IMG/VR virus record: IMGVR_UViG_3300043399_000676 | Length of the DNA: 43,157 bases | From: a virus | Taxonomy: Duplodnaviria > Heunggongvirae > Uroviricota > Caudoviricetes | Reading direction: 5' to 3' (one strand) | In this document: piece after piece, positions 17,236 through 37,622 of the stretch | Numbering within the stretch: the first letter of the stretch is position 1 | How the letters are laid out: the number at the start of each line of letters is the position of its first letter | Notes under the pieces: generated by a model | Told to the model about the DNA's origin: nothing | Seen by the model: the letters and a program-made list of their open reading frames with translations, nothing else | The model's database searches: none | Made by a program: the position numbers and the translations under genes

Positions 17236-17263
17236 TCTAATAAGTTAAAAGTATAGGATAAAT

Positions 17264-18541
17264 ATGCCGTTAGATTTTCCGTTATCACCATCAGTAGGAC
17301 AAATTTATACCTTTGGGGTTAGAACTTGGAAGTTCAACGGTAAAGGGTGGGAACTATTAGGAGCAAACAGTGGCTTCAGTGGTTATTCGGGAGCATTTGG
17401 AACAAGCGGATTTTCGGGTGTCAGTGGTGCAACTGGTACATCAGGATGGAGTGGTTACTCAGGCGCATCTGGCTTTAGCGGCATAAGCGGATTTTCGGGT
17501 AGATCAGGATATAGCGGCATAAGCGGTTACTCAGGCGCATCTGGTACATCAGGTATAAGTGGTTACTCAGGTATTTCTGGTGTTAATGGTGCATCTGGCT
17601 TCAGTGGCTTCTCTGGATATTCAGGCGTTAGTGGTGCAACAGGTGGCACAGGTGGTACAGGCGCATCTGGCTTTAGCGGTTTCAGTGGCTTCTCTGGATA
17701 TTCAGGCGTTAGTGGTGCAACAGGTGGCACAGGTGGTACAGGCGCATCTGGCTTTAGCGGTTTCAGTGGCTACTCGGGTATCTCTGGTGTTAATGGTGCA
17801 TCTGGCTTTAGTGGCTTCAGCGGTTACTCTGGTGTTAGCGGATACAGTGGTGTTTCAGGTTCAGGTACTTCGGGTTATTCGGGCGTTTCAGGTGCAAGTA
17901 CGTCTGGGTTCTCTGGAATAAGCGGATTTTCTGGGACTTCGGGTTTTTCTGGAATAAGCGGATTTTCTGGGACTTCGGGCTTCAGTGGTGTATCAGGCAT
18001 AGGTACCTCAGGGTATAGTGGAAAATCTGGATATTCTGGGATTAGCGGATATAGCGGAGCTCCTATAACAGTACTGGACGATACCACGACTTCAACTACG
18101 GTATATCCAGTTTGGAACCCCGCAACCAGTGGTTCTTTGACTCCCAAAGTAAGTTCTACTAAACTATCCTTCATTCCATCAACTGGAGTACTAACATTAG
18201 TTGCAGTTGATTATGGTGCTAATGTACAACAAGGATTCGGGACGTTTACGACTGCAAACACAAATCAAATTATTTTGGATGCAATCTCTAGTTCTACCTA
18301 CAGATCAGCAAAATATACTGTTCAGCTTTCAAGTGGAACAGCATACCAAGTGACGGAATTGAGTACTATACATGACGGAGCAAACGCATACATCGTTGAA
18401 TATGGGGAAAATAAAGCAAATACAGCATCTGCATTGGGATCATTTGACGCAAGTGTCAGTTCAGGTAATATGAACTTGTTGTTTACACCGATAAATTCTT
18501 CTACGACTGTTAAGTTTTTTAGAACGGCGATTGACATATAA
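17264..18541 (+). CDS. Gly-X-Ser collagen-like fibre / adaptor protein
   Basis: MPLDFPLSPSVGQIYT..W.FNG.GW anchor. About 78 GXS-type triplets including an 81-nt duplication with GGT triplets. C-terminal YRSAKY domain. Confidence 0.8.
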   Translation: MPLDFPLSPSVGQIYTFGVRTWKFNGKGWELLGANSGFSGYSGAFGTSGFSGVSGATGTSGWSGYSGASGFSGISGFSGRSGYSGISGYSGASGTSGISGYSGISGVNGASGFSGFSGYSGVSGATGGTGGTGASGFSGFSGFSGYSGVSGATGGTGGTGASGFSGFSGYSGISGVNGASGFSGFSGYSGVSGYSGVSGSGTSGYSGVSGASTSGFSGISGFSGTSGFSGISGFSGTSGFSGVSGIGTSGYSGKSGYSGISGYSGAPITVLDDTTTSTTVYPVWNPATSGSLTPKVSSTKLSFIPSTGVLTLVAVDYGANVQQGFGTFTTANTNQIILDAISSSTYRSAKYTVQLSSGTAYQVTELSTIHDGANAYIVEYGENKANTASALGSFDASVSSGNMNLLFTPINSSTTVKFFRTAIDI

Positions 18542-20748
18542 TGACAACTAATGCATTTTCAGCTAAAGATGGAATAAAGGTAGACAGCCAAGCCGTTATT
18601 GACGAAAACGGTAATTGGATAGGACCAGGGACGAATATTACAGGTCCACAGGGCGTACAAGGGGCGCAAGGACAACCGGGGATACAGGGTTCGCCGGGTT
18701 CACAAGGAGCGCAAGGCTTATCTGGTATTCAAGGACAACCAGGTGTCGCAGGAAGACAAGGAGCACAAGGCCCTCAGGGAGTTCAGGGTGTAATTGGAGC
18801 ACAAGGCCCTCAGGGAGTTCAGGGTGTAATTGGAGCACAAGGCCCTCAAGGCTCTCAAGGCCCTCAAGGAGCACAAGGTGCAGCAGGAATACAGGGACAA
18901 GCTGGAATACAGGGGGTCCAAGGATCAACTGGTGCACAAGGCCCTCAGGGAGCACAAGGTCAAATTGGACCAACTGGAGCACAAGGTTCTCAAGGACCGG
19001 CTGGCGTACAAGGACCGGCTGGCGTACAAGGAGCTCAGGGAGTACAAGGACCGGCTGGCGTACAAGGGACACAAGGGTCAGTTGGTGCAGTTGGTCAGCA
19101 GGGTTCACAAGGACCGGCTGGTTTTCAGGGAGTACAAGGACCATCTGGTGCACAAGGTGCACAGGGTTTAGTTGGGCCAGTCGGTGCACAAGGTGCACAA
19201 GGTGCAGTTGGCGTTCAAGGAGCGATTGGTGCAACTGGCGCGCAAGGACCACAAGGTGCACAAGGTGCAGACGGCGCGCAAGGACCACAAGGTGCACAAG
19301 GTTCGACTGGGATACAGGGCGCGCAAGGACCATCTGGTGCTCAAGGAGCACAAGGTCCTCAGGGAGTTGCAGGCGTGCAAGGACCATCTGGTGCTCAAGG
19401 TCCACAGGGAGCATCAAGTTCAGTGGCTGGCGCTCAAGGACCGGCAGGGATACAAGGTGCACAAGGAAATCCCGGAGCACAAGGCGTTCAGGGTTCAACA
19501 GGACCAACAGGAGCAACTGGTCAACCCGGCGTAGCTGGTGTCCAAGGAGCACCTGGGTTTCAAGGAGCACAGGGGTTAACTGGATTTCAAGGATTTCAAG
19601 GAAACCCTGGAGCACAAGGCCCTCAGGGAACACAAGGCGTTGCGGGAGTACAAGGTGCTGCTGGTAGACAAGGAGCACAAGGTCCTGCTGGGTTTCAGGG
19701 CGCGCAAGGTCCGCAAGGCGCGCAAGGAGCGCAAGGGCCAACTAGTGCAGTCAGCGGCGCACAAGGAGCGTCTGGTAGACAAGGAGCGCAAGGTCCGCAA
19801 GGAGCGCAGGGGGCAATTGGTCCACAAGGAGCACAAGGAGTTCAGGGTGCAGCTAGCGCAGTTAGTGGAGTACAAGGTTATCAAGGAAGACAAGGGGTTC
19901 AAGGACCAATTGGTCCACCTGGTGCTGCTGGACGACAAGGAGCACAAGGGTCAGCTGGTGCTCAGGGTGTACAAGGAGCGCAAGGCCCACAGGGAGCGCA
20001 AGGAATACAAGGACCACGCGGACCACAGGGAGCAATTGGAGTTCAGGGTTCTATAGGGGCACAAGGAGCTCAAGGAGCGCAAGGAAACTTTGGAGTAGGG
20101 GGCGCTCTTGGAGCACAAGGGGTTCAGGGGGCTGCAGGGCCTCCAGGGCCTGCAGGCATTCAAGGCACAGCAGGTGCACAAGGGGTTCAGGGGGCTGCAG
20201 GGCCTCCAGGGCCTGCAGGCATTCAAGGCGCAGCAGGTGCACAGGGTGCACAGGGTGCAGTTGGAACAGCAGGTGTAACAGGCGCACAAGGACCACAGGG
20301 TTATCAAGGACCTGCATCTACTACATCAACGCCCAATGTTGGTTCTTTAAATGTAGGGTCGGCAACAAATGCACCAACTGGGCATATTAGGGCCTCTGGC
20401 GACATCACTGCATATTATTCGGATAAGCGACTAAAAACTAATATTATTTCTCTTACTAATTGTTTAGAAAAAGTTCAATACTTATCGGGAGTTTATTACA
20501 CACAAAATAAACTGGCAGAAAAATATGGGTACAACGATTATTCAAGACAAATTGGATTGATATCACAACAGGTTGGGACTTTTGCTCCGGAGATAGTTAA
20601 AGAAGCTCCTATAAATAGTTCAGATGACACTGGAGAGAAATTCATGACGATTCAGTACGATAAGTTAATTCCAGTTTTAGTTCAAGCAATAAAAGAACAG
20701 CAGTTGATTATTGCATCAATGATTAAACAGATTGAGAAGGGCGAATAA
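18541..20748 (+). CDS. Collagen fibre protein 1 (Gly-X-Gln) with peptidase S74 intramolecular chaperone
   Basis: Collagen at aa 35-592 (179 triplets plus 3 interruptions). [10 protein letters not shown]74 motif at aa 627 and C-terminal coiled coil [16 protein letters not shown]. Confidence 0.9.
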
Positions 20749-20750
20749 GG

Positions 20751-22961
20751 TTGGCTAAGAATATATTTACCATAAAGAACGGACTTACAGTAGGTACTTC
20801 CGCTTCAATCAACTCGTCCGGAGAATGGATAGGTCCTACTACTAATATTATGGGACCTCAGGGGCCTGCTGGTGCACAAGGCCCTCAAGGTGCTCAAGGA
20901 GCATCTGGAATACAAGGATCTCTTGGCGTACAAGGGCCAGTTGGTGCTCAGGGAATACAAGGAACACAAGGGCCAGTTGGTGCTCAGGGAATACAAGGAG
21001 CACAAGGTTTGGCTGGTGCACAAGGAGCACCCGGTGCTCAAGGAGTACAGGGAGCTAATAATGTAGCTGGATCTCAAGGTGCAACTGGAATTCAAGGAAG
21101 TGTTGGGGCCCAAGGGAGACAGGGAAATCCAGGCATTCAAGGTACAACTGGAGCACAAGGAGTACAGGGAGCAGCAAGTTCAGTTGCAGGGGTCCAAGGC
21201 CCAGTTGGCGCACAAGGAGCATCTGGCGCACAAGGAGTTCAAGGTCCACAAGGACCAATTGGCGCACAAGGAGTCCAAGGACCGCAAGGACCAAATGGTA
21301 TTCAGGGTGCACAAGGGTCAATTGGTGCCCAAGGACCGCAAGGACCAATTGGTGCCCAAGGAGCCCAAGGAGCCCAAGGGGCAGCAAGTTCAGTTGCAGG
21401 GGCACAAGGCCCTACAGGAATTCAGGGATCTGTTGGTGCACAAGGAGTTCAAGGAGCACCTGGACCAATTGGACAGCCTGGTGAACAAGGTGTAGCAGGT
21501 GCTCAAGGACCGGCAGGGATACAAGGTGCGCAAGGTTTACTAGGAGTTGCAGGGGCACAAGGAGCAGTAGGGCCAATTGGGGCACAAGGAACACAAGGCG
21601 TTGCGGGAGTACAAGGTGCTGCTGGTAGACAAGGAGCACAAGGTCCTGCTGGGTTTCAGGGAAGACAAGGGCTAAATGGACCATCTGGGTTTCAAGGGAT
21701 ACAAGGAGCAGCAAGCTCAGTTACTGGACCACCGGGGTTTCAAGGAGTACAAGGAGCACAAGGCCCTCAGGGAGCACAAGGAGCACCTGGTCCACAAGGA
21801 GCGCAAGGTCCGCAAGGAGCAACGGGAGCAGTAGGATCGACTGGTCCAACTGGAGTGCAGGGTAGTGCTGGTGCTCAAGGAGTCCAAGGAGCAATTGGTC
21901 CACAAGGAGCACAAGGTCCGCAAGGTGTCGCAGGGGTGCAAGGTGCAATTGGAGCAACGGGTGCACAAGGTCCTGCGGGGTTTCAGGGAATTCAAGGATC
22001 AATTGGTCCTGACGGTCCTAATGGAATCGGTGGAGCAACAGGCTCACCTGGCGCACAGGGAAGTGTAGGTGCACAAGGAGCACAAGGACCTCAGGGAGCG
22101 CAAGGAGCGCAAGGAGCAATTGGTGCACAAGGACCTCAAGGAGTTCAAGGAGTAAACGGAAATCCTGGACCACAGGGATTTCCTGGAGCTACTACCGCAG
22201 GCTTCCAAGGAATTCAAGGATTACCTGGTGCTCAAGGCGTTCAAGGCGTTCAAGGGCGAGCAGGGCTTCAAGGAGTACAAGGACCTACTGGGGCACAGGG
22301 TTTTCAAGGTCGAGCAGGATTTCAAGGTCGAGCAGGCGTTACTGGCGCACCTGGATTTCAAGGAAGACAAGGAGTACAAGGACCGGCTGGTCCTTCGGGC
22401 GTTACTGGCGCACCTGGATTTCAAGGAAGACAAGGAGCACAAGGTCCTGCTGGCTTTCAAGGAAGGGCAGGTGTGCAAGGCACACAAGGACCTGCCGGTC
22501 CGCAGGGTCCCCAAGGAGTTACTCAATCGCTTGGTATTTCGGTGTCATCATTGGGAGTAAATACACCGGCAGGTCCTTCGGGAGACTTGAGAGCAACTAA
22601 TGACATCATTGCATATTATTCAGATATTAGACTGAAAGACAACTTAGAAACTATAAAAGACCCAGGTTCAAAACTGTATACGTTAAACGGTGTATTTTAT
22701 ACACAAAACAAATTCGCAGAAAAATTTGGATATAAAAACTATAGTCAACAAGTAGGATTGATTGCACAAGAAGTGCAGAAAGTAGTACCGGAGGTCGTTA
22801 AGCCTGCACCATTTGATGTAAGTGGGCATGATGGTAGTAAAACTGGTGAGCACTATCTCACTATCCAATATGAAAGATTAATACCTTTGATTGTTGAAAC
22901 TATTAAAGAACAACAACGCGAAATAGAACGTTTACAAGATTTACTTAACAGAGAAAGCTAA
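20751..22961 (+). CDS. Collagen fibre protein 2 (Gly-X-Gln) with peptidase S74 chaperone
   Basis: TTG start with aagg upstream. Collagen at aa 35-591 (175 triplets plus 5 interruptions). AYY-SDIRLK at aa 624. Confidence 0.9.
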
Positions 22962-25162
22962 TGGCAGCAAGTGTTTTTATAATTAAGAATGGTCTAGTAG
23001 TAGGAAACACCTCAGTTATAAATGCAGCTGGTGTTTGGGTAGGATCACCTTCAAATTATGCAGGAGCACAAGGTGCTGCTGGATTTCAAGGTGCACCTGG
23101 CGTACAGGGCGTACAAGGCTCCCCGGGCGTACAAGGCTCCCCGGGTGTACAAGGCGCACAAGGAGTAACAGGTGCCCCAGGAATACAGGGTTTCATTGGT
23201 ACTGCGGGTATTACAGGAGCACAAGGTTTAGTTGGAGTACAAGGCGCCTCAGGAGCACAAGGTGCCCAGGGTGCACCTGGGTTTCAAGGAGTTCAAGGTG
23301 CACCAGGAGCACAAGGTGTCCAAGGCCCTCAGGGAGCACAAGGTGCTCAAGGTCTTCAGGGGGCACCTGGTGCACAAGGAGCGCAAGGAGTTCAAGGCGC
23401 ACCAGGTGTTTTAGGAGCACAAGGACCTCAGGGCGCGCAAGGAGCAGCAAGTTCAGTTGCAGGAGCACAAGGCGCACAAGGCGCACCTGGATATCAAGGA
23501 GTGCAAGGATCGGCAGGTCCTAATGGGGTACAAGGAGCACAGGGAGCGGTTGGTCGGCAGGGAGTACAAGGTCCTGCTGGGTTTCAGGGTGCACAAGGTC
23601 CACAAGGCGCACAAGGCCAGCAAGGTGCAGTTGGAGCACAAGGAGCGCAAGGCGCTACTAGCGCAGTTGCTGGTTTTCAAGGAAGACAAGGAGCACACGG
23701 TCCTGCTGGTTTTCAAGGAAGACAAGGAGTACAAGGACCTACTGGGGCACAGGGTGCACAAGGAGCAGCAAGTTCAGTTGCAGGTGCACAAGGACCTACT
23801 GGGGCACAGGGTGCACAAGGTCCGCAAGGTTATCAAGGCCTAGCAGGTCCGCAAGGCGCGCAAGGCGCGCAAGGCGCTTCTGGGGCACAAGGTCCGCAAG
23901 GAGCATCTGGTAGACAAGGAGCGCAAGGCGCGCAAGGAGCGCAAGGAGCGCAAGGATCATTAGGAGCTACCGGCGTTCAAGGGGCAGCAAGTTCAGTTGC
24001 AGGTGCACAAGGAGAAACAGGCAGACAAGGAGTACAAGGACCTGCTGGTTTCCAAGGACCTACAGGACAACCCGGTGCTCAAGGAGTTCAAGGGGCAGCA
24101 AGTTCAGTTGCTGGTTTTCAAGGAGCAACAGGCAGACAAGGGTATCAGGGGTTGACCGGAGTTCAAGGAGCACCTGGTCCACAAGGTCCTCAAGGGGCAC
24201 AAGGAGTTATTGGTGCACTCGGAGCACAGGGAAGACAGGGCATACAAGGGCCACCTGGGCCACCTGGGCCACCTGGTATCCCAGGGCCACCTGGTGCGCC
24301 CGGAGTCCAAGGAGCACCCGGAGCACCCGGAGCACAAGGTGCTCAAGGTGTCCAAGGTGCAACAGGAGTAAACGGAGCACAAGGAGCACAGGGTGTACTA
24401 GGAGCACAAGGACCACAGGGTGCCGCTGGTGCGCCCGGAGTCCAAGGATTTCAAGGAATTCAAGGCGATATAGGTACAACAGGACAACCTGGTGTATTGG
24501 GAGCGCAAGGCCCACAGGGAGCGCAAGGCCCACAGGGAGCGCAAGGGATACAAGGAGCACAAGGCCCACAGGGAGCGCAGGGCGCAGCCGGCGCACAAGG
24601 CCCGCAAGGAATACAAGGAGCACAAGGCCCACAGGGAGCGCAGGGCGCAGCCGGCGCACAAGGCCCACAAGGAGTGCAAGGGACATCGGGTACGATAATA
24701 ACGCCTAGTGGGCCACCTGGCTTTCAAGGTGCACCTGGACCTGCTGTAACGCAAGTCTCTGCACTTGGGGTCAATACACCCGCAGGACCAACCGGGGTTA
24801 TTAGAGCAACTGGTGATGTCACTGCATTCTACTCAGATGCTAGATTAAAAACCATTATTGGTCCTATTGATAATCCTCTACAGCGGCTGCAAAAAATAGA
24901 AGGGGTATATTATCAGCCTAATGATCTAGCAAAGTCGTTTGGTTTTGATATCTCGATGAGAAATATAGGATTTATTGCACAACAAATTGAAGAAATATTA
25001 CCAGAGGCAGTTAGAATTGCACCGTTTGACGCAAATAAATTTGGTCATAGTAAGTCGGGTGCTAAATATTTGACCGTGATATACTCAAAGGTAGTTCCGT
25101 TGTTAATTCAAGCACTAAAAGAACAGAAAGGACAAATTGATTATATCCGATCAAAACTGTGA
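22961..25162 (+). CDS. Collagen fibre protein 3 (Gly-X-Gln, richest in Y-position Pro) with peptidase S74 chaperone
   Basis: TAATG overlap with the upstream gene. Collagen at aa 35-595 (173 triplets plus 6 interruptions), including [27 protein letters not shown] at aa 625. Confidence 0.9.
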
Positions 25163-25169
25163 GGATACA

Positions 25170-25745
25170 ATGAAAGGCGAATGGTGCTATTTCAAATCTT
25201 ATTTTGACAAGAATACATGCAATGAAATACTAGAAAAAGCAAAACTGATAGAAACGCAAGATGCAGTTTTGGGTTTAAACAATGACCCGCAGGTCAACTT
25301 TGAATACAGACGCAGCAAAGTTCGTTTTTTAAACAGCGATGATTGGAGATTTAAGGATCTGTTTACTGACCTGTGGAAAACTGCCATAATGGCAAATCGA
25401 GATTTCTTTAATTTTCATATAACCAAGTTGGATTTTGTCCAACTTGCTGAGTATGATGCTTCGTATCAAGGAGAGTACAAAGAACACCATGATGTTTTTT
25501 GGCTAAATAATGACCCTGATTACCATAGAAAGATGACAGCGGTCATTCAACTATCAGATCCGAACGATTACGAAGGCGGAGATTTAGTTGTGACTGAAAC
25601 AGTTACTCCGCCTGGGCCTACTGAGTTTAGGGATCAAGGTACAATTATATTTTTCCCTTCATTTCTGAGACACAAAGCAACTCCTGTTATCAGAGGTACT
25701 CGTTATAGTATCGCTGCTTGGTTCGAGGGTCCCAAATGGCGATGA
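25170..25745 (+). CDS. 2OG-Fe(II) oxygenase, prolyl-4-hydroxylase-like (PKHD type)
   Basis: HxD (EHHD), RKMTAVIQLSDP.DYEGGDL, distal His (LRHKATPV) and 2OG-binding Arg (TRYSIAAW). Start moved to ATG 25170, which has a gagga SD. Confidence 0.85.
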   Translation: MKGEWCYFKSYFDKNTCNEILEKAKLIETQDAVLGLNNDPQVNFEYRRSKVRFLNSDDWRFKDLFTDLWKTAIMANRDFFNFHITKLDFVQLAEYDASYQGEYKEHHDVFWLNNDPDYHRKMTAVIQLSDPNDYEGGDLVVTETVTPPGPTEFRDQGTIIFFPSFLRHKATPVIRGTRYSIAAWFEGPKWR

Positions 25746-26458
25746 AAATTGAAAGATTTGATGAGCCATTCACCTATTATCTTATTGATAACTATTTGGA
25801 TGAAGATACGGCTAGGAAACTAGAATCAGAGTTTATTCCATTTGATTCTAGCAAATGGTTTACCTATGACAATCCTGTTGAAAACAAGAAAGCATTGAAC
25901 AGTTGGTACGAGTTCCCTCCTACTACTTATCAGTACATGACTTATCTTAACTCAAATGAACATGTTGAATCACTAGAACGATTAACAGGAGAATCAAAGT
26001 TATATGCTGATCCTGGGCTACATGGTGCAGGGTGGCATATACAAGGCAATGGCGGACTGTTAAATGTTCACTTAGACTACTGCATTCATCCCAAGCTAAT
26101 GAAAAAGCGAAAGTATAACTTAATTGTTTATCTTTCTGATTGGAATAAAGAATGGGGAGGAAATCTAGAACTGTGGAGTCATGATAACTTGACTAATCAA
26201 CCAAAAGAAAAAGTTGTTACGGTTGAGTGTAAATTTAATCGTGCAGTTTTATTTGATGCCTCTATGAACTCATGGCATGGATTTTCTGAACCGATCAATT
26301 GTCCTCCTGACAAATTTAGAAAGAGCATTGCGATGTATTATTTGGTTGATTCAGAAGAAGGTGATAGTGACAGAAAACGCGCATTGTATTCACCTCGTAA
26401 AGAACAACAAAACAACAAAGAAGTTTTAGATTTCATTAAAAAACGTGTAATAGGTTGA
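25742..26458 (+). CDS. 2OG-Fe(II) oxygenase (2OG-FeII_Oxy_3 type)
   Basis: GAGWH....GG.LNVHLD, NLIVYLS.W..EWGGNLELW, FNRAVLF...SWHGF and RKSIAMYY. Start at 25742 gives an ATGA overlap. Confidence 0.85.
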   Translation: MKIERFDEPFTYYLIDNYLDEDTARKLESEFIPFDSSKWFTYDNPVENKKALNSWYEFPPTTYQYMTYLNSNEHVESLERLTGESKLYADPGLHGAGWHIQGNGGLLNVHLDYCIHPKLMKKRKYNLIVYLSDWNKEWGGNLELWSHDNLTNQPKEKVVTVECKFNRAVLFDASMNSWHGFSEPINCPPDKFRKSIAMYYLVDSEEGDSDRKRALYSPRKEQQNNKEVLDFIKKRVIG

Positions 26459-26461
26459 TTA

Positions 26462-29514: not shown

Positions 29515-29515
29515 T

Positions 29516-30784
29516 ATGAATCAATACAAATTTAGTATTATCACACCGGAGCATAATCCTAATAACGCTCCTTTTTTGCTAGAGCTATATAAAAGTATAG
29601 CTAATCAAACCTATTCTAACTGGGAGTGGATTTTATATTTAAACAATGGTTGTTCACCCGATGATCTCCCTGAACTCATTCTTATGGATGACCGAGTTAT
29701 GATCTATCATTGCTTGGATGCAGCACATAACATTGGTGCAATAAAAAATGCAGCATTTAATTTAGGAACAGGTGATGTTTTGGTTGAAGCAGATCATGAT
29801 GATATCTTAACTCCTGATTGTTTAGAAGAGTTGAACATTGCGTTCCAAGATCAACAAGTTGGGTTTGTTTTTAGTGACAATGCAGTTCTTCACATGAAGG
29901 ATGAGTTCTCACCATTCTCTTCTACTTATGGATGGACTCATAGGATGTTTGAGTGGCAAGGAAAACAGTTATATGCAATGAATAGCTTTGAACCTTCTAG
30001 TCATTCAGTTGGGTATATTTGGTACGCACCTGATCATGTTAGATCATGGAGAACTTCTATTTACAAAGAGATCGGCGGCCATAACCCTGATCTTTCTGTA
30101 TGCGATGACCATGAATTGATGATTCGTACATATCTTACTACAAACATGAAGAGGATTCCCAAGGTTCTATACATCTACAGAATCACTGGGGATAATACTT
30201 GGTTAGCTAGAAATCAAGAGATACAAACCAAAACAGTAGAACTTTTTAATCAATATGCAATGAAGCTAGCTGAACGTGATGCAGAAAAAAGAAATCTTCT
30301 TAAGGTTGATATAGGCGGGGGGATAAACTCACTGCCAGGGTATATTACACTAGATCAGAGAGAAACAGCCCACGTTGTATGTGATTTAAATAACGGTATT
30401 CCTTTGCCCGATAACTCAGTGGGAGTTTTGAACGCAAGTCATATTATTGAACATCTCCGAGATCCTATTAAAACTATGCGTGAGATTCACAGAGTACTTG
30501 CACATGGAGGATGGGCATTTATAGAAGTTCCAAGCACAGACGGGAGAGGAGCGTTTCAAGATCCAACTCATGTTAGTTATTGGAATGAAAATAGCTTCCT
30601 GTATTATACTAACTCGTATTTTGCAAACTTTATTGAGAACAAAGATATTCGATTCCAAGAGTTTAGAAGAGAGACATGGTTTCCTAATGAATTCTTGCGT
30701 AACATGAACGTTTGTGTTACTACTGCTTGGTTGGTTGCCCACAAGCCAAATGGAAATACTTTGCCTCACGGTATGTATATATGA
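29516..30784 (+). CDS. GT2 glycosyltransferase fused to a SAM methyltransferase
   Basis: FSIITPEHN, NQTYSNWEWIL, EADHDD (DxD) and CDDHELMIR; C-terminal KVDIGGG and ASHIIEHL..LAHGGW. Probable start is ATG 29516. Confidence 0.85.
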   Translation: MNQYKFSIITPEHNPNNAPFLLELYKSIANQTYSNWEWILYLNNGCSPDDLPELILMDDRVMIYHCLDAAHNIGAIKNAAFNLGTGDVLVEADHDDILTPDCLEELNIAFQDQQVGFVFSDNAVLHMKDEFSPFSSTYGWTHRMFEWQGKQLYAMNSFEPSSHSVGYIWYAPDHVRSWRTSIYKEIGGHNPDLSVCDDHELMIRTYLTTNMKRIPKVLYIYRITGDNTWLARNQEIQTKTVELFNQYAMKLAERDAEKRNLLKVDIGGGINSLPGYITLDQRETAHVVCDLNNGIPLPDNSVGVLNASHIIEHLRDPIKTMREIHRVLAHGGWAFIEVPSTDGRGAFQDPTHVSYWNENSFLYYTNSYFANFIENKDIRFQEFRRETWFPNEFLRNMNVCVTTAWLVAHKPNGNTLPHGMYI

Positions 30785-30954: not shown

Positions 30955-31005
30955 AAAAGTTAATCTGTCTAGTTTTGTTGATACATACAAATCAAAAGAT
31001 TAGAT

Positions 31006-34000
31006 ATGATTACAGGCCCAGTAAAATTTGATTTCATGGCAGGTGGAGTAAAACGCACTTCTATGGCGTTTTGGTGTGTCATGATGAAGCGAGAGTTGTT
31101 TGACGAGATTGGACTTTTAGATGAAATCTTTTCTCCTGGTATGGGAGAAGATGGTGATTTCTCTATACGAGCCGAAATGGCAGGTCATTCTTTAGTTCAA
31201 GTTCCTAATAATTTTAGTCATATGTTCGGGGAAGGCAAGTTAGACAACGAGGTCTATGCTTTCCCTATTTACCATAAAGGTTCGGGAACATTTGGATGGG
31301 GTGACTATGGTGGTATAATTGAACGAAACCAAAAAATTCTAGACGAGAGGTATGGGTTGAATCAAAAAACTTACGAAATAGATTCCAGGTATCAAACCAA
31401 TAAAGAAATTAGATACTTTGATGATTTGCAGAATGCTGACGAGTTTCAGAATGAAGTGTATGAATATGCAAGATTTCTTGCAGAACAGAACTCCTACAAA
31501 ACAGTATTAGATATAGGTTGTGGCTCTGGATTCAAATTGAGAAAATACTTCGACGCTTCGAAGTACGATTGTTATGGGCTAGATTTAGACAAAACTTGTT
31601 CGGTTTTGCGAGAGAAGTATAAAGATGTAAACTGGATATCATATGATATCGATAATGAAACTGGAGCCCCGAGTGAACTTCCACCGCAGGTTGATCTTGT
31701 GATATGTTCAGATGTAATAGAACACCTGCGAGATCCTGATAGGTTGATGTCTTTCTTAAAAGGGATTGATTATAAAATCTTATTGCTATCAACACCGGAC
31801 AGGGATATTATTTCATCTAGGAATGGTAAGTTGTTTGGACCACCGGATAACGCTCATCATATTCGTGAATGGAATAAAGATGAACTTAATAGATATCTAA
31901 GTAAGCATGTAAAGGTAACTGGGCAAGCAGTTATAAATGAAGCACAAGCAACTCAAATGGCGGTTTGTATTCCAGCAAAAACTCAAGTTTCCATAGTAAT
32001 TCCAACATACAATCATTGCGATGATCTACTGAAACCTTGCATTGAAAGTATCCAACAATACACAGACATGGTAAATGTTGAGTTAGTAATAGTTGCGAAT
32101 GGATGTTCTGATAATACACGAGAATATGTCCAAACTCTAGAAGGTAACGTGAAGTTAATATGGGTAGATGAAGCCATTGGCTACACAAAGGCGACTAACT
32201 TAGGAATTAAAGCAGCAACAGGGGAAACAATTGTTCTGATGAACAACGATGTTTTGCTGTTGTCACAATATAAGAATTTTTGGTTAGACGTATTGATGAA
32301 CGCACTTGTTCCTACTAATGTAGGGATTGTTGGTGTTTTGGAAAACTATGATATGTACGCCGACGCCAAATTTCCTATATTTTTCTGCGTTGCTATCAAG
32401 AGAGAAGTGTTTGATAAAATTGGATTACTAGATGAAGCATATTCTCCTGGATATGGAGAAGATATTGACTTTACTCTTAGAGCCAAGCAAGCAGGATTTG
32501 ATTACATTATCCCCGTCGCAACTAGATTCGTCGATGGACAGAATGTAACTGAATACCCTATTTGGCACAAGAACAATCAAACGTTCAAAGATGTTCCAGA
32601 ATATTTGAGTATCATCCAAAGGAACAATCGGTTGTTATATGAGAAATACAATCCCAGATTCAAGTCGGCTGATTTCAGTATTGTCATTCCTACTTATAAT
32701 CATTTGTATGACGCATTGAAACCATGCATTGAATCATTGTTTAACTACACTGATCTTTCAAATAAAGAAGTAATTGTAGTTGCAAATGGTTGCACTGACG
32801 ATACAAAGCCGTTTTTAGACTCGATATCTGATAAGGTTCGTGTAATTTGGTTTGATGACCCGATTGGGTACATCAATGCGGTAAACGCCGGTATTGCCGT
32901 TAGTGTTGGTAAACACATCATTTTGTTAGATAATGACTGTGTGCTTTTACCTCAATCAGTTGATGATTGGGTGAATATTCTTCATGCACCATTTGTAAAT
33001 AGTGACAAGGTCGCTGCATCAAGTCCATTTGCTCATGAATATGAAGACATGGGGTTTGTTTTGCATTCAGGATGCACAATGTATAGGGCGGATGTACTGC
33101 GTCAAATTGGTATGTTTGATACTACATATCATCCTGGATACTTTAGTGACTCAGATGTTGCAATGAAAATATGGAAAGCAGGATATGAATGTGTAGAAGT
33201 ACCAAAACGTAACGATGATAAGCCCTACAATAACAATCTATTCTTAATCAATTTTCCAGTGATGCATTTGGGAAATGTTCAGACAATGGATAAAGTTAAG
33301 GACAATGAAATCGTCAAAAAGAACAGAGAGATTTTATATTCAAGATATGGAAAGAAAAAACAAATGAAAAAATATAGCATAGTAATCCCTACTTATAATC
33401 ATTGCGATGACCTACTAAGACCTTGCCTTGAGAGTATTGAACGTTACTCAGATATGAGTCAGGTTGAGGTTATTGTAGTTGCAAATGGTTGTGTGGATAA
33501 TACTAAGGAGTATGTAGAGAGTTTAAACCCTGAAAACTTTAAGTTAATCTGGGTAGATGAAGCTATTGGCTATACAAAGGCAACTAACTTAGGCATTAAA
33601 GCAGCAACAGGTGAATATGTTGTGCTTTTGAACAATGATACTGAAATTCTACCTTCAGAAAAAAACGCATGGCTAAACATCTTGGAGGAACCCTTTAACA
33701 CAAAAAAGAAGGTAGGACTGACGGGCCCCTTGCAACTTTTTGATGATTATGCAGGTTCGCCAGTCCTTATCTTTTTCTGTGTAATGATTAAACGTACCCT
33801 ATTTGAAGAAATTGGGTATTTGGATGAAATCTTTACACCAGGTGGCGGTGAAGACATTGATTTTACTGTTCGCGCAAACCTTGCAGGATATGAAGCGATT
33901 CAGGTTACTCAGACCACTTATAACGGTGTAACTAATGTAGGTAACTTTCCGATTTGGCACAAAGACAATAAGACGTTCGGCGAAATCCCTGAATACACGA

Positions 34001-35223
34001 ACCATATCGTAAAGCGTAATGGTCATATTAATGCTAAACGATACAATAAGAATCTAAAATTGAACTTGGGTTCAGGTGGTGTACCCTATCCAGGATATTT
34101 GTCAGTTGATCTTTATGATAAACGAGCACATGTCCATATGGACATTACTAAGCTAGATTTTCATGATAACACCGCAGTTGAAATTCTTGCTTCGCATGTG
34201 TTCGAACATCTTAATCCTTATCATGCATTGGACATTCTTAAAGATTGGAACAGAGTTCTTAAGCCAGGTGGAAAGCTTATTATGGAGATGCCAGACATCG
34301 AAGCCTTGTGCGCTAGGTTCGCTGATGCAAACACAGGAGAACGATACGGCATTCTAAATGCAGTATATGGTAGCGTTAACACTACGGGTGAAGGTGGACC
34401 AGACAATATTACAGCACCGCATCTATTTGGTTGGTGGAGACAATCTCTGTTAGATCATTTACTTAATGCAGGATACGTCGATATCGAGTTCATGGAAGAG
34501 CAAATCCCTCACCCTGAAAGCAACTTGCGGGTCGAAGCAGTAAAGCCTATCCCTAACAGGAGTGAATTGTATGCACAAGACCCTCTTACTTACGATGAAA
34601 TCTTTGGTATCGACGGGTACAAGATTGCAAAGAGAGGACCACTATCACCTAGAGGAAAAACAGTAGTAGACATTGGTGCGAATATTGGATTGTTCGCTCT
34701 TAGATGTGTAGAATTAGGTGCAGCTAGAGTGATTTCTGTTGAACCTCAACCTGCTGTCTATCATCAAGGACTTCTACGTTACATAAAAGATTTTCCACAG
34801 GTCATTCCAATCAATCGAGCTTGTTTAGATGTTGATGGTAAACAAGTTTTGATTTCTGATCAAAATGTTGCATCTAGGATTGGATACGAGGGAGATCCGG
34901 TGGAAAGTATTTCTCTAAGAACTATCGTAACTCAATATAATGTTGAAAAGGATTCGCTTCTTAAAATTGATTGCGAAGGATCTGAGTATGATATTCTTTT
35001 GAATACTGATATTGATACTCTTAGGTTGTTCAAGGTAATTGATATGGAATTACATATGATCAACAACGTTAATCCTTTGTACAAAGGATTTGAAATTATC
35101 ATGAATCGAATGAATGAAGTTGGCTTTAAGATGGAAGAATTCACACAGCATTACTGGAACTTTACAGATGGCCGAGTCCATCCGATTGATGTTTGTGTCT
35201 TGAAATGGGTTAGAATGGATTAA
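31006..35223 (+). CDS. Multidomain glycosyltransferase/methyltransferase polyprotein (half GT2 - MTase - GT2 - GT2 - GT2 - MTase - FkbM-type MTase)
   Basis: SIVIPTYNH three times (about 31981, 32671, 33364), each with NND/DND and EDIDF/SDSDV motifs. SAM motifs VLDIGCGSG, LNLGSGG and VVDIGANIG...LLKIDCEGSE. Confidence 0.9.
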   Translation: MITGPVKFDFMAGGVKRTSMAFWCVMMKRELFDEIGLLDEIFSPGMGEDGDFSIRAEMAGHSLVQVPNNFSHMFGEGKLDNEVYAFPIYHKGSGTFGWGDYGGIIERNQKILDERYGLNQKTYEIDSRYQTNKEIRYFDDLQNADEFQNEVYEYARFLAEQNSYKTVLDIGCGSGFKLRKYFDASKYDCYGLDLDKTCSVLREKYKDVNWISYDIDNETGAPSELPPQVDLVICSDVIEHLRDPDRLMSFLKGIDYKILLLSTPDRDIISSRNGKLFGPPDNAHHIREWNKDELNRYLSKHVKVTGQAVINEAQATQMAVCIPAKTQVSIVIPTYNHCDDLLKPCIESIQQYTDMVNVELVIVANGCSDNTREYVQTLEGNVKLIWVDEAIGYTKATNLGIKAATGETIVLMNNDVLLLSQYKNFWLDVLMNALVPTNVGIVGVLENYDMYADAKFPIFFCVAIKREVFDKIGLLDEAYSPGYGEDIDFTLRAKQAGFDYIIPVATRFVDGQNVTEYPIWHKNNQTFKDVPEYLSIIQRNNRLLYEKYNPRFKSADFSIVIPTYNHLYDALKPCIESLFNYTDLSNKEVIVVANGCTDDTKPFLDSISDKVRVIWFDDPIGYINAVNAGIAVSVGKHIILLDNDCVLLPQSVDDWVNILHAPFVNSDKVAASSPFAHEYEDMGFVLHSGCTMYRADVLRQIGMFDTTYHPGYFSDSDVAMKIWKAGYECVEVPKRNDDKPYNNNLFLINFPVMHLGNVQTMDKVKDNEIVKKNREILYSRYGKKKQMKKYSIVIPTYNHCDDLLRPCLESIERYSDMSQVEVIVVANGCVDNTKEYVESLNPENFKLIWVDEAIGYTKATNLGIKAATGEYVVLLNNDTEILPSEKNAWLNILEEPFNTKKKVGLTGPLQLFDDYAGSPVLIFFCVMIKRTLFEEIGYLDEIFTPGGGEDIDFTVRANLAGYEAIQVTQTTYNGVTNVGNFPIWHKDNKTFGEIPEYTNHIVKRNGHINAKRYNKNLKLNLGSGGVPYPGYLSVDLYDKRAHVHMDITKLDFHDNTAVEILASHVFEHLNPYHALDILKDWNRVLKPGGKLIMEMPDIEALCARFADANTGERYGILNAVYGSVNTTGEGGPDNITAPHLFGWWRQSLLDHLLNAGYVDIEFMEEQIPHPESNLRVEAVKPIPNRSELYAQDPLTYDEIFGIDGYKIAKRGPLSPRGKTVVDIGANIGLFALRCVELGAARVISVEPQPAVYHQGLLRYIKDFPQVIPINRACLDVDGKQVLISDQNVASRIGYEGDPVESISLRTIVTQYNVEKDSLLKIDCEGSEYDILLNTDIDTLRLFKVIDMELHMINNVNPLYKGFEIIMNRMNEVGFKMEEFTQHYWNFTDGRVHPIDVCVLKWVRMD

Positions 35224-35224
35224 T

Positions 35225-36205
35225 ATGGGAAAGCAAATTCTTTGTTCTATTTCAACTAGAAATCGTTATGACACAACATTGCCTATGGCAATTGAGTCAG
35301 TCATAATGCAGACTAAGCGACCTGATAAGCTGGTTATTTTTGATGACAATGATAATCCTAAAGATATGCGAGAAGTGCAGCATTATAGGTATTTGTTTGA
35401 AATGATGCAACTTAAAGGGATGGATTGGGAATGGGTATATGCCTTGAAGAAAGGGCAACATCATAACCATCAAATGGCTAATAGAATGGGTTACGAATGG
35501 GTATGGAGACTTGATGATGATACGGTGGCAGAGCCTAACGTACTTGAGACTTTGTTTTCCTACACTGACCCTACGATCGGAGCGGTAGGAGGGGCAGTAC
35601 TTACTCCTCCTTTCGGTCCATTGGGTAAGGTTACAAGTAAGATAGAAGATATCTACTCTGAACCTAATATACAGTGGTATTATATTGACCAAGTCAAAGA
35701 AGTTGATCATTTACATTGTTCCTTTCTATACCGAGCAGGAGTGTATGATTATGATCTCAGTTTGTCTAGAGTAGCGCATCGAGAAGAGACACTATTTTCG
35801 TATGGGCTTGTGCAAAAGGGGTATAGAAATTTAGTCGTTCCTAATGCTGTAACATGGCACTTAAAAAATGCGACTGGCGGAATTAGAGACTCCAATGTTC
35901 GTGAATGGTTTGAACATGATGAAAACATTTTCAGGAATAAGATACTCTTAAGGGACAACACGATTGTTGTATTAGATTGCGGAATGGGAGATCATATCGT
36001 GTTTAAGCATGTGCTTCCTGATGTTAAAAACCCTATTGTTTTCAGTTGCTACCCTAATATTGTTCCTGGTAAGAGTATTGCGGAAGCGTATCAAATGTTT
36101 GGTGATTTGAGTCAGTTTAGTATCTACAGAAAAATGGATGAATGGAATTGGAAAGGCTCCCTTGAAGACGCCTTTAGAAAACTTTATGTGAGTGATAAAA
36201 AATGA
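35225..36205 (+). CDS. GT2 glycosyltransferase with a C-terminal GT9-like N-lobe fragment
   Basis: CSISTRNRY..LPMAIESVIMQT, IFDDN, WRLDDD and HREET; C-terminal IVVLDCGMGDHIVF resembles the GxGD start of GT9. Confidence 0.75.
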   Translation: MGKQILCSISTRNRYDTTLPMAIESVIMQTKRPDKLVIFDDNDNPKDMREVQHYRYLFEMMQLKGMDWEWVYALKKGQHHNHQMANRMGYEWVWRLDDDTVAEPNVLETLFSYTDPTIGAVGGAVLTPPFGPLGKVTSKIEDIYSEPNIQWYYIDQVKEVDHLHCSFLYRAGVYDYDLSLSRVAHREETLFSYGLVQKGYRNLVVPNAVTWHLKNATGGIRDSNVREWFEHDENIFRNKILLRDNTIVVLDCGMGDHIVFKHVLPDVKNPIVFSCYPNIVPGKSIAEAYQMFGDLSQFSIYRKMDEWNWKGSLEDAFRKLYVSDKK

Positions 36206-36651
36206 TATTGATTTCCCCTTATGCAAAACAAATGCGAAATGGAGAAAAACATCCAAAGAACTATCCGTACTGGGATAAGCTCATCCCTATGATAAAAGAG
36301 CCGATCATTCAGGTTGGCATCGAGGGAGAGTCTCCGATGGTAGAGGACTTTCGCCAAAACTTGTCATTGATTGAATTAGAAAATCTTGTCAATGAATGCA
36401 AGACTTGGATATCAGTTGATTCATTCTTTCAGCATTTTTGTTGGGATTTAGGTAAACCTGGCATTGTACTATTTGGACAATCTGATCCAAATATATTCGG
36501 TCATCCAGAAAATATTAACCTACTAAAAGATAGAAAGTTCTTGAGAAAAAACCAGTTTTGGCTTTGGGAACAGTGTGAAGCCAATGACGAGGCGTTTGTA
36601 GAACCTGAAGAAGTTTTAAGGACACTAAATGAACATTTTTCAGTCAACTGA
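36202..36651 (+). CDS. GT9-like (heptosyltransferase family) C-terminal lobe
   Basis: ISPYA....KNYPYW, IQVG..GE, LSL.EL..L, ISVDSFFQH and GKPGIVLFGQSDP..FG match the GT9 C-lobe pattern. Confidence 0.7.
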   Translation: MILISPYAKQMRNGEKHPKNYPYWDKLIPMIKEPIIQVGIEGESPMVEDFRQNLSLIELENLVNECKTWISVDSFFQHFCWDLGKPGIVLFGQSDPNIFGHPENINLLKDRKFLRKNQFWLWEQCEANDEAFVEPEEVLRTLNEHFSVN

Positions 36652-37072: not shown

Positions 37073-37083
37073 GGAGAAGTAAA

Positions 37084-37619: not shown

Positions 37620-37622
37620 TTC

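Follow-up and report, generated by a model that had tools for sequence, protein, structure and literature searches.

A putative fibre-maturation region with collagen-like fibres and three enzyme modules in an uncultured T4-like phage

Glycosyltransferases (GTs) are found in the same genomic region of pelagimyophages and cyanomyophages, and remodelling of the host surface is the published reading of their role (PMC7029224). Secondary-metabolite roles have been proposed for the dioxygenase arrays of cyanophages (Iyer et al. 2010, PMC2938197); the tandem arrays of Syn9 include the gp52 family (DUF6445), as does an 804-aa fusion protein of the present locus. No published description of collagen-fibre genes arranged with modifying-enzyme genes was found in the literature. 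Here we describe a 338-kb uncultured T4-like water phage, which carries a collagen trio and a block of modifying enzymes. The window, that is the whole stretch of DNA analysed, is 43,157 nt long. Surveys covered about 250 related phage loci, in sets that were seeded with genes from the window and are hence non-random samples. The evidence is genomic or comes from structural prediction throughout, and consists of gene content, folds, catalytic residues and co-occurrence.

Fibre genes, enzyme genes and their packing

The window encodes the following collagen-like fibres.

18541..20748, + strand: collagen A, 735 aa; Gly-X-Gln, 182 triplets; C-terminal S74 self-cleaving chaperone domain, SDKRLK
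20751..22961, + strand: collagen B, 736 aa; Gly-X-Gln, 180 triplets; S74 domain, SDIRLK
22961..25162, + strand: collagen C, 733 aa; Gly-X-Gln, 175 triplets; S74 domain, SDARLK
17264..18541, + strand: Gly-X-Ser fibre, 425 aa; Pfam Collagen 9e-27; "YRSAK" C-terminal domain
3826..8922, + strand: Gly-X-Ser fibre, 1698 aa; 405 triplets, Ser at Y in 91%
40249..42834, - strand: Gly-X-Ser fibre, 861 aa; Ser at Y in 89%

Collagens A, B and C match Pfam Collagen with E-values of 8e-84, 2.5e-82 and 9e-79, and Peptidase_S74 with 4e-8, 4e-10 and 2.5e-11. Gln occupies the Y position in 58-62% of their 175-182 triplets, and the triplets of collagen C include a 19-residue run. Pro is found at ~19% of X and ~8% of Y positions. 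Most prolines of the trio are at X, which is a counterpoint to the hydroxylation by oxyA proposed below; the classical site of collagen P4H is a different one. The fibre at 17264 (72 triplets, 82% of them with Ser at Y) immediately precedes the trio, and the same order of fibre and trio is seen in L001, L020, L023 and other relatives.

The following genes make up the enzyme block.

25170..25745, + strand: oxyA, 2OG-Fe(II) oxygenase, 191 aa; Pfam 2OG-FeII_Oxy_3 5e-15
25742..26458, + strand: oxyB, second 2OG-Fe(II) oxygenase, 238 aa; Pfam Oxy_3 3e-16, Oxy_4 3e-9
26462..27103, + strand: class I SAM methyltransferase (MTase), 213 aa; Methyltransf_11 5e-11
27100..29514, + strand: fusion protein, 804 aa; N-terminal GT-A-like DUF8361 (1-230), GT2 (core 245-338), TPR (~500-565), DUF6445 (624-784)
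29516..30784, + strand: GT2 and Methyltransf_11 fusion, 422 aa
30781..30954, + strand: DUF6171 Cys-rich zinc-ribbon protein, 57 aa; translationally coupled by an ATGA overlap
31006..35223, + strand: polyprotein, 1405 aa; truncated GT2 (17-68), MTase (154-300), three GT2 (from 329, 558 and 791), MTase_11 (~1043-1093), FkbM MTase (1222-1375, above its own cut-off)
35225..36205, + strand: GT2x, GT2 protein, 326 aa
36202..36651, + strand: GT9-like protein, 149 aa
36629..37072, + strand: protein with no assigned family, 147 aa; in many relatives, too, it comes next after the GT9-like gene

The ORF map and Pfam matches bore out the first-pass annotation in that three S74-capped Gly-X-Gln collagens run into an enzyme block. 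From 17264 to 37072 all genes overlap or are separated by at most 7 nt, with the single exception of a 51-nt gap at 30955-31005. With the likely starts of oxyA (25170), oxyB (25742) and the GT2-MTase fusion (29516), the successive junctions are -1, +2, -1, +7, -4, +3, -4, +1, -4, the 51-nt gap, +1, -4 and -23 nt. The gap is preceded by the DUF6171 gene, which we add as a correction to the first-pass annotation. The domain counts given earlier were also upheld by Pfam and domain searches: three 2OG-oxygenase domains (oxyA, oxyB and DUF6445), six and a half GT2 (one complete domain each at 27100, 29516 and 35225, three in the polyprotein), one GT-A-like and five MTase domains (26462, the C-terminus of 29516 and three in the polyprotein).

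The enzymes are soluble, with no membrane-spanning segment in any of the block, and lie within a tightly packed run of structural genes, to which their genes are translationally coupled. There is no enrichment of sigma-70-like sites (37 vs 40 expected). Among the window proteins scanned there was no priming transferase, flippase, polymerase or transporter/ABC exporter and, as noted before, no nucleotide-sugar gene.

A prolyl-hydroxylase-type enzyme and Pro-containing collagens

The predicted fold of oxyA (pLDDT 89.8) is that of a protein prolyl hydroxylase. The top Foldseek match was PPHD 4iw3 (E 4e-13, TM 0.76), and PhyA 6t8m, PHD2, Cr-P4H and vCPH of PBCV-1 were also among the top matches. 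Protein prolyl hydroxylases account for almost all of the best 50 structural matches listed, and the few others are PKHD/PiuC-type or uncharacterised 2OG oxygenases. An alignment of 22 orthologues shows no variation at the residues of H106-x-D108...H168 and R178-x-S180.

The distribution of oxyA was consistent with this fold. Among 88 dereplicated S74-fibre units, oxyA lies just downstream (within 2.6 kb) of 29 of the 35 Pro-containing collagens, and of none of the five Pro-poor collagens and one of the 48 non-collagen fibres (Fisher 3e-16); it is missing downstream of six Pro-containing units. An independently seeded subset that lacks the GT cassette, with unrelated fibre architectures of 870-1834 aa, gave 7/10 vs 1/51 (p 2e-6). 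Tree-controlled tests were underpowered: in one, oxyA moved with collagens in two to three of eight independent pairs and against them in none (p about 0.25), and in another the S74 tree contained a single supported pair. In addition, the cultured cyanophages S-CAM9 and S-PRM1 carry an orthologue with 49% identity after their collagen/S74 tail fibre. Fold and strong co-occurrence over diverse fibre architectures thus back the earlier proposal that Pro-containing collagens are linked to a prolyl-hydroxylase-type enzyme.

Two further modules with different distributions

The second module comprises oxyB, the 804-aa fusion and the GT2-MTase fusion, the last two being constant partners in relatives. 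The best PDB sequence match of oxyB is OGFOD1 (2e-4). In the 804-aa fusion, GmaR is the sole significant match of the GT2 domain among solved structures (2e-5), the TPR region is supported by strong matches of the alignment profile, and H706/D708/H782/R796 of the DUF6445 2OG-oxygenase domain are conserved. The modelled structure of DUF6445 is closest to OGFOD1 (Z 14.5), PHD, PPHD and PhyA (Z 13-14.5); the antibiotic-tailoring enzymes SnoK, HygX and PolD (Z about 12) are merely 1-2 Z units lower. This near-equality, together with the proposal for the cyanophage arrays, would fit oxygenases, MTases and transferases that make or tailor a metabolite. That role is, however, very improbable: the scaffold-forming enzymes NRPS, PKS and ATP-grasp were not found among the window proteins scanned, the structural neighbours of oxyA among the matches listed are overwhelmingly protein hydroxylases, and the TPR fusion and tight linkage to fibre genes favour other roles.

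Synteny from the trio through oxyA, oxyB, GT2-TPR-DUF6445 and GT2-MTase to the neck gene gp13 is found in dozens of T4-like contigs. The usual place of the cassette is before gp13, whatever lies upstream: the collagen trio, unknown proteins or, in L003, an RCC1-repeat giant protein with a sulfotransferase. In 13 of 37 dereplicated relatives there is no collagen next to it. It is therefore conceivable, if quite unlikely, that oxyA acts on the collagens while the GT and MTase modules decorate other virion proteins (other fibres, neck/whisker, capsid decoration), and that adjacency to the trio reflects only a fixed cassette position. The third module, which tracks Gly-X-Ser fibres and not the trio, agrees with this. 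Yet the GT2-TPR protein is within 5 kb of 24 of the 35 Pro-containing S74 collagen units in the seeded sets, and the Gln-rich Y position of S74 collagens adjoining the cassette (median near 0.5 vs 0.09, an uncontrolled comparison) hints at a specific link.

The third module consists of the polyprotein, GT2x and the GT9-like protein, the latter two being paired in 31/31 relatives. Only half of the earlier "split GT9" was recovered: the match of the GT9-like protein to heptosyltransferases is confined to their C-terminal Rossmann half, the protein belongs to a conserved phage-only family of ~147 aa, and the supposed first half, the C-terminus of GT2x, has no Pfam match. The half-GT2 of the polyprotein, a weak match to the C-terminal half, is common to the closest relative (L094) and intact in L220. 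A Gly-X-Ser/Thr collagen lies within 1.5 kb upstream of the GT2x/GT9-like pair in 15 of 31 dereplicated loci (background 1/88) and anywhere in the locus in 20/31 (background 8/78). In L220, the intact polyprotein homologue directly follows a collagen in which 99% of the Y positions are Ser. The fibres at 17264 and 3826 are candidate substrates, the former of the GT2x/GT9-like module and the latter for Ser O-glycosylation.

The polyprotein module is also found apart from Gly-X-Gln collagens. In L094, L096 and L098 it adjoins nucleotide-sugar, sulfotransferase and carbamoyltransferase genes, as polysaccharide synthesis would predict, and DegT, epimerase/RmlD and APS kinase genes are also neighbours of its homologues. 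For the GT2 domains the highest scores, all under curated cut-offs, are to exopolysaccharide and O-antigen enzymes, and the GT9-like piece is similar to LPS heptosyltransferases. Together with the collagen-free cassettes and the published view of related phages, these features are those expected if the GT and MTase genes, perhaps the oxygenases too, alter the lipopolysaccharide O-chain or capsule of the host in infection, for example to block superinfection. Their position beside fibres would then be due to a shared hypervariable "host recognition cluster" of marine T4-like phages. We consider this unlikely because such remodelling leaves three prolyl-hydroxylase-like oxygenases, the TPR fusion, the GmaR-like GT2 and the matching of enzyme type to the neighbouring fibre repeat unexplained. 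Nor does it sit well with soluble enzymes embedded among structural genes, in a window among whose scanned proteins export and priming functions were not found.

Proposed fibre maturation and comparison with known systems

The first-pass annotation had proposed a single collagen-modification operon. The link between oxyA and collagens stood, whereas the unity of the operon did not; the locus is a composite of three modules with different distributions. Occurrence of the enzymes independently of collagens, regarded earlier as an argument against that proposal, was seen in part, for the cassette and for the polyprotein module. We favour, with a probability of about 0.55, the reading that this part of the structural module serves fibre maturation and that its three enzyme modules have the collagen-like fibres of the phage itself as their substrates.

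The course of events given next, with its individual reactions and their substrates, is inferred throughout. The modules would act in the host cytoplasm while the fibres are produced. OxyA would hydroxylate prolines of the Gly-X-Gln collagens. The second module may be a protein-directed cassette that hydroxylates and then glycosylates, in which TPR would hold the peptide and whose GT2 resembles the flagellin glycosyltransferase GmaR; it would target whichever fibre precedes the neck genes, here most likely the trio. The third module may build methylated O-glycans, the acceptors being most likely Ser residues of the three Gly-X-Ser fibres (17264, 3826 and 40249) rather than the trio. Collagens A-C would then trimerise via their S74 domains, which would cut themselves at the conserved SDxRLK site. 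Roles of the modified fibres as a shield, in mimicry or in buoyancy are speculation.

In comparison with known systems, oxyA has Dictyostelium PhyA and PBCV-1 vCPH among its structural matches listed. Since the collagen domains of the trio contain no Lys, Lys hydroxylation and glycosylation as in animal collagen or mimivirus L230 is excluded for the trio, and that analogy does not apply. All LH3/ColGalT1/L230-like fusions found (in S-CAM9, L136 and L147) are neighbours of collagens that have Lys at Y; in the cultured cyanophage S-CAM9, a GT25/LH3-like enzyme accompanies a collagen fibre that, unlike the trio described here, bears Lys. This pairing and that of Gly-X-Ser fibres with GT2x/GT9-like proteins reinforce the general idea of enzyme-substrate matching. 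The genomic data and structural models suggest that phages carry out the chemical finishing of their collagen fibres themselves, with enzymes matched to the chemistry of the repeat.

Collagen genes and their surroundings

The first-pass annotation described 18541-36651 as an operon for the modification of phage collagen fibres, in which three collagens are coupled to hydroxylases, glycosyltransferases (GTs) and methyltransferases. The observation was confirmed, and its domain census of the block, that is, the enzymes after the collagens, proved correct in Pfam and structure-based domain checks. However, the block consists of three modules, and the interpretation is partly supported. By the ORF map, the window carries one long plus-strand gene run in which genes overlap or are closely spaced. 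The genes concerned are as follows.

18541-20748, plus strand: collagen A, 735 aa, Pfam Collagen and Peptidase_S74
20751-22961, plus strand: collagen B, 736 aa, Pfam Collagen and Peptidase_S74
22961-25162, plus strand: collagen C, 733 aa, Pfam Collagen and Peptidase_S74
25170-25745, plus strand: oxyA, predicted 2OG-Fe(II) oxygenase
25742-26458, plus strand: oxyB, predicted 2OG-Fe(II) oxygenase
27100-29514, plus strand: 804-aa fusion, GT2-TPR-DUF6445
29516-30784, plus strand: GT2-MT (ORF 29507)
30781-30954, plus strand: DUF6171 zinc-ribbon protein, 57 aa, Cys-rich
31006-35223, plus strand: polyprotein, 1405 aa
35225-36205, plus strand: GT2x
36202-36651, plus strand: GT9-like protein
36629-37072, plus strand: u147, 147 aa

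From the collagens to 37072, the junctions computed with the most plausible starts (oxyA 25170, oxyB 25742, GT2-MT 29516) are -23 to +7 nt, the sole exception being the 51-nt gap at 30955-31005. No membrane-spanning segment was found in any block enzyme. The DUF6171 gene, missing from the first-pass map, is translationally coupled to GT2-MT and lies directly before the only sizeable gap of the block.

Collagens A, B and C (the trio) are paralogous proteins, each with 175-182 Gly-X-Y triplets. Gln occupies Y in 58-62% of the triplets, and Pro occupies X in 15-21% and Y in 5-12%, while Lys is absent from the repeat regions (0 in 537 triplets). By PF01391 (E = 8e-84, 2.5e-82 and 9e-79 for A, B and C, above the gathering threshold), the trio is predicted to consist of collagen triple-helix repeat proteins. 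The C-termini match Peptidase_S74 (PF13884; E = 4e-8 to 2.5e-11), and the self-cleavage motif SDxRLK is invariant among 35 aligned homologues, with S32, D33 and K37 unchanged. They are therefore probably intramolecular chaperones of the endosialidase/tail-fibre type that keep the Ser nucleophile and the Lys base. The three collagens form orthologous classes kept across phages (the window and the relatives' loci L001, L019, L023, L031, L037, L054, L064 and L076). Trio lengths agree inside one phage (median range 11 aa) and vary widely among phages (SD 130 aa), suggesting that the three make an A/B/C heterotrimer or act as a length ruler.

The window proteins sit on a 338,587-bp contig, and the synteny of the block with relatives is consistent with an uncultured T4-like phage of large size. 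In a megablast search of 50,697 phage records the enzyme block had no match, no isolate being close at the DNA level, and tblastn of a 1380-aa neighbour protein also gave none. Overall, the window shows no enrichment of the T4-type late promoter TATAAATA/ATAAATA. ATAAATA occurs at 17229-17235 and 17258-17264, just upstream of gene 17264, and no intergenic copy lies between 17264 and 37072; the pair at most hints at a single late transcription unit. Further copies at 774-780 and 10955-10961 are located just upstream of genes 803 and 10967. Among the upstream fibre genes, outside the annotated block, there is a class I methyltransferase-like gene (12276-12917; Methyltransf_23, 5e-5, below the Pfam cut-off). 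In seven relatives (L020, L026, L028-L031 and L034), the large terminase gene appears to be split by a 187-aa ORF into parts of 295 and 403 aa, as in the ORFs after terS of L020; an intron or an inserted homing endonuclease could be the cause.

Predicted hydroxylases beside proline and lysine collagens

The AlphaFold model of oxyA has a pLDDT of 89.8. Its best Foldseek matches are 4iw3, 6t8m, PHD2, 3gze and 5c5t (TM 0.66-0.76), and among the matches listed nearly all structural neighbours are protein prolyl hydroxylases, including P. putida PPHD, Dictyostelium PhyA, PHD2, Chlamydomonas P4H and PBCV-1 vCPH. In the alignment, H106, D108 and H168 of the HxD...H iron triad and R178 and S180 of the RxS 2-oxoglutarate site are invariant. 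By the fold of the model and the invariant active-site residues, oxyA probably belongs to the P4H/PHD/PKHD branch of protein prolyl hydroxylases. The Foldseek check proposed in the first-pass annotation thus returned a prolyl-hydroxylase fold for oxyA, hydroxylation itself being a prediction.

In the reverse direction, a survey that started from the S74 domain yielded 88 dereplicated S74-fibre units, and oxyA was counted when it lay at most 2.6 kb downstream.

Table. Units with oxyA downstream, by type of S74 fibre.
Pro-containing S74 collagens: 29/35
Pro-poor S74 collagens: 0/5
S74 fibres without collagen: 1/48

The association of oxyA with Pro-containing collagens gave a Fisher p of 3e-16 over the 88 units, kinship being uncontrolled. 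When only S74-seeded loci without the GT cassette were taken, oxyA was present in 7/10 versus 1/51 (p 2e-6), and the fibres in this subset have very diverse architectures. Tree-based independent-pairs sign tests were underpowered and fell short of significance, so the raw Fisher tests are not phylogenetically controlled and the association is strong but phylogenetically unproven. An oxyA orthologue, 49% identical, comes after a collagen/S74 tail fibre in the cultured cyanophages S-CAM9 and S-PRM1.

In S-CAM9 (NC_031922), the product of the gene after the oxyA orthologue (L092:12567-14408) is a fusion of 613 aa that joins a ColGalT1-like GT25 (1e-19), an LH3 GT (5e-33) and an L230-like lysyl hydroxylase (1e-8). 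The tail fibre encoded two genes upstream of this fusion has 1830 aa, with a Gly-Pro-Thr/Gly-Pro-Lys collagen segment, Lys at many Y positions and an S74 end. From its domains, the fusion appears to make up a full animal-type Hyl-Gal-Glc toolkit in a cultivable phage. S-PRM1 (L093) has the same arrangement of fusion and fibre. Elsewhere in the locus sets, the LH3/GT25 fusion is found only beside Lys-at-Y collagens (L136, 0.25; L147, 0.07). The GT25, PLOD-GT and LH domains of S-CAM9 have no phmmer match in the window, which lacks the PLOD/LH3-ColGalT1-L230 lysyl system. The lysine analogy to animals and mimivirus L230 drawn in the first-pass annotation therefore does not extend to the trio. Since the trio repeats contain no Lys, their chemistry, if real, must begin at Pro, Ser/Thr or Gln.

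Pre-neck cassette and Gly-X-Ser module

IMG/VR was searched with an alignment of the 804-aa protein, yielding 80 loci. The typical T4-like order is a 'YRSAK'-domain fibre, three S74 Gly-X-Gln collagens, oxyA, oxyB, GT2-TPR-DUF6445 and GT2-MT, followed by gp13, gp14, gp15 and terminase. In most relatives the block is located directly upstream of gp13-gp14-gp15, between baseplate/fibre and neck genes, whereas in the window it runs into u147, u684 and cell-wall hydrolase genes, and gp13 was not found anywhere in the 43,157 nt. Among 37 dereplicated loci with at least 700 nt of upstream sequence, collagens are directly upstream of the cassette in 24 and absent from there in 13. The first-pass annotation had regarded occurrence of the enzymes independently of collagens as evidence against its reading; because 13/37 loci lack adjacent collagens, such independence is seen in part, for the pre-neck cassette. 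In one locus without collagen (L003, 1-9300), the cassette comes after a giant protein (>3000 aa) bearing RCC1/WD40-like repeats, and a sulfotransferase, an FkbM methyltransferase and a second methyltransferase also lie ahead of it. The giant protein may be another fibre type with its own modification set.

The N-terminus of the 804-aa protein, DUF8361, is almost confined to viruses and resembles GT-A transferases (Atlas; TM 0.6-0.88). TPR families match the family profile strongly, and among solved structures the GT2-TPR profile finds a single significant GT2 match, over about 100 residues: GmaR (2e-5), a flagellin O-GlcNAc transferase composed of GT2 and TPR. The DUF6445 domain (PF20043; 31.1 bits versus a cut-off of 24; model pLDDT 84) belongs to the Syn9 gp52 family, and tblastn matches Syn9 gp52. 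Its model is nearest to OGFOD1 (best Z 14.5), PHDs, PPHD and PhyA (Z 13-14.5), small-molecule oxygenases scoring about 12, and H706, D708 and H782 of the HxD...H motif are conserved. Pfam, the modelled DSBH fold and this motif point to a Syn9 gp52-like 2OG oxygenase. The domain composition suggests that the fusion acts on proteins, first hydroxylating and then glycosylating them. Isolated phages contain only partial matches to the 804-aa protein.

S74 collagens beside the GT2-TPR-DUF6445 cassette or a standalone DUF6445 have a median Gln at Y of about 0.5, versus about 0.09 otherwise (Mann-Whitney p 5e-5 over the S74 collagen units of L001-L176; exploratory and not tree-controlled). This enrichment could reflect Gln-directed chemistry or mere shared ancestry.

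Against the PF00535 cut-off of 23.3 bits, ORFs 27100, 29507 and 35225 score 27.5, 41.2 and 26.2, and three polyprotein segments score 61.3, 76.5 and 71.6; all are thus predicted GT2 family members. Polyprotein residues 1219-1350 score 70.7 bits for FkbM methyltransferase (TIGR01444; cut-off 37.7). Polyprotein homologues are common (356 proteins). The order polyprotein, GT2 of about 300-329 aa and GT9-like gene is kept in L094, L096 and L098, where the module adjoins nucleotide-sugar, sulfotransferase, APS-kinase and carbamoyltransferase genes.

When the GT9-like protein served as the seed of a survey, 31 dereplicated loci were obtained, in all of which (31/31) it is paired with GT2x. In 15/31 loci the module has a Gly-X-Ser/Thr collagen ending at most 1.5 kb upstream, and in 20/31 such a collagen occurs anywhere in the locus, the backgrounds from the other two locus sets being 1/88 and 8/78. 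In L220, an intact four-GT2 polyprotein homologue immediately follows a collagen whose Y positions are 99% Ser. The window has three fibres of this kind.

3826-8922: Gly-X-Ser fibre, Ser-at-Y repeats
17264-18541: Gly-X-Ser fibre, Ser-at-Y repeats
40249-42834: Gly-X-Ser fibre, Ser-at-Y repeats

The GT2 at the polyprotein start is truncated also in the nearest relative, L094 (76% identity), and intact in L220; the truncation is inherited. A recent insertion scar, made up of the 51-nt gap and the truncated GT2, was considered and rejected because L094 has the same shortened start and the same GT2-MT-to-polyprotein junction. The 'split GT9-like enzyme' of the first-pass annotation is not a broken gene: the 149-aa protein belongs to a phage-only family that is normally about 147 aa, and for this reason a frameshifted pseudogene was also rejected. 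The supposed first half of GT9 has no Pfam match. The protein aligns only to profile positions 172-218 of 247, scores 20-21 bits with NCBIfam heptosyltransferase models (cut-offs 170-437), has no BAHT (TibC/AAH) model listed and no TibC/BAHT-specific signal, and reaches E = 0.15 against PDB. It is therefore unlikely to be a full two-Rossmann GT-B enzyme of the GT9 or BAHT type.

Downstream (36629-40252), the GT9-like gene is followed by the 147-aa protein and, further on, the 684-aa protein and a SleB-type cell-wall hydrolase with a hydrophobic N-terminus. This synteny is common to a large-phage lineage (L179, L180, L182, L185, L188-L190, L195 and L205; L185 is a 335-kb IMG/VR contig), in which a giant Gly-X-Ser fibre lies immediately before the GT module.

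Proposed fibre maturation and known systems

The most likely mechanism, to which we assign a probability of roughly 55%, is cytoplasmic maturation of the phage's own fibres by the block enzymes. In this pathway, oxyA would hydroxylate prolines of the Gly-X-Gln collagens, the pre-neck cassette would perform protein-directed hydroxylation and glycosylation, and the polyprotein/GT2x/GT9-like module would build methylated glycans, more probably for Gly-X-Ser fibres. The main rival is host-surface remodelling, in which host polysaccharide would be the target of the enzymes. Zaragoza-Solas et al. (2020; PMC7029224) named this region the 'host recognition cluster' of pelagimyophages and cyanomyophages and regarded its GTs as host O-chain modifiers; it is the same region of T4-like aquatic phages, in which tail fibres are mixed with GTs upstream of neck genes. 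However, three independent enzyme-repeat pairings exist, for Pro, Lys and Ser, which a host-polysaccharide target hardly explains; we consider this rival rather improbable. Iyer et al. (PMC2938197) noted cyanophage dioxygenase arrays and predicted that bacterial collagen-like proteins are hydroxylated and sulfated, and a Baltic virome paper (PMC9301287) called the role of the viral P4H (P4HA) auxiliary gene 'cryptic'. Unlike the cluster and Baltic papers (PMC7029224, PMC9301287), the present surveys specifically link the P4H-like gene to collagen fibres containing Pro, and the GT9-like module to Gly-X-Ser fibres. Our literature search found no paper connecting phage collagen fibres to these enzymes.

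Fibre maturation may be part of a wider pattern. We tentatively propose, as a possibility less probable than the maturation itself, that aquatic tailed phages own residue-matched collagen toolkits: P4H-type enzymes for Pro, LH3/ColGalT1-type fusions for Lys, the GT2x/GT9-like module for Gly-X-Ser and perhaps a set for Gln, as Gly-X-Gln repeats may go with the GT2-TPR-DUF6445/methyltransferase cassette. The Gln pairing, if true, would imply an undescribed Gln- or Hyp-directed modification. Hydroxylated, glycosylated collagen is regarded as an animal hallmark, with giant viruses and spore coats as the known outliers; with such toolkits, an ECM-like pathway of collagen hydroxylation and glycosylation would operate on phage fibres inside the bacterial cytoplasm, and the animal and giant-virus enzymes may then have had an old reservoir in phages. 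P4H-like genes are abundant in aquatic viromes, and the idea would account for their being among the most abundant unexplained 'auxiliary' genes there. It would also overturn the host-LPS-modifier reading of GTs in the marine T4-like host-recognition cluster. Phage host range and adsorption could hinge on post-translational chemistry unseen in the fibre sequence, and soluble enzymes of the bacterial cytoplasm would become available for producing modified recombinant collagens. Related cassettes are present in S-CAM9 and S-PRM1, both cultured cyanophages, which makes the idea directly testable.

PBCV-1 vCPH (5c5t), among the structural matches of oxyA, is likewise a soluble virus-encoded enzyme with the P4H fold, sequence identity being about 20%. 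PBCV-1 A064R is a multidomain GT-GT-methyltransferase for the capsid glycan, and such viral proteins build methylated virion-protein glycans without host secretory machinery. However, PBCV-1 is a eukaryotic giant virus whose glycan decorates the capsid protein and is unconnected with genes for triple-helix collagens, whereas the window enzymes are those of a tailed phage, and their genes are coupled to those of the collagen-like fibres. In mimivirus (L230/R699), hydroxylase/GT fusions encoded by the virus modify its collagen-like proteins, and the 804-aa protein likewise joins a predicted GT and 2OG oxygenase. In animals, LH3 (PLOD3) and ColGalT1 carry out collagen lysyl hydroxylation and Hyl glycosylation; true homologues of the LH3/ColGalT1/L230 system do exist in phages (S-CAM9), but without counterpart in the window.

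In the Skp1 pathway of Dictyostelium and Toxoplasma, the Hyp made by PhyA is elongated by cytoplasmic GTs, among them Gnt1 and PgtA. In the structure searches, PhyA (6t8m) ranked second for oxyA and among the best for DUF6445, and the pathway combines a soluble, cytoplasmic PHD-type prolyl hydroxylase with multidomain GTs, as proposed for the phage block. Skp1 is modified at one regulatory site, whereas the phage fibres offer a structural repeat; by analogy, Hyp-linked glycans on the fibres may be conjectured. TibC and AAH, which have the GT9 fold, heptosylate Ser of autotransporters, whereas the GT9-like protein of the window, though tracking Gly-X-Ser fibres, is a 149-aa half domain. The BclA exosporium collagens of Bacillus have O-glycosylated Gly-X-Thr repeats. 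In prokaryotic collagen-like repeats of this type Ser/Thr at Y bear the O-glycans, and the Gly-X-Ser fibres of the window are candidates for similar decoration. The phage case would be a variant of known viral and bacterial collagen modification.
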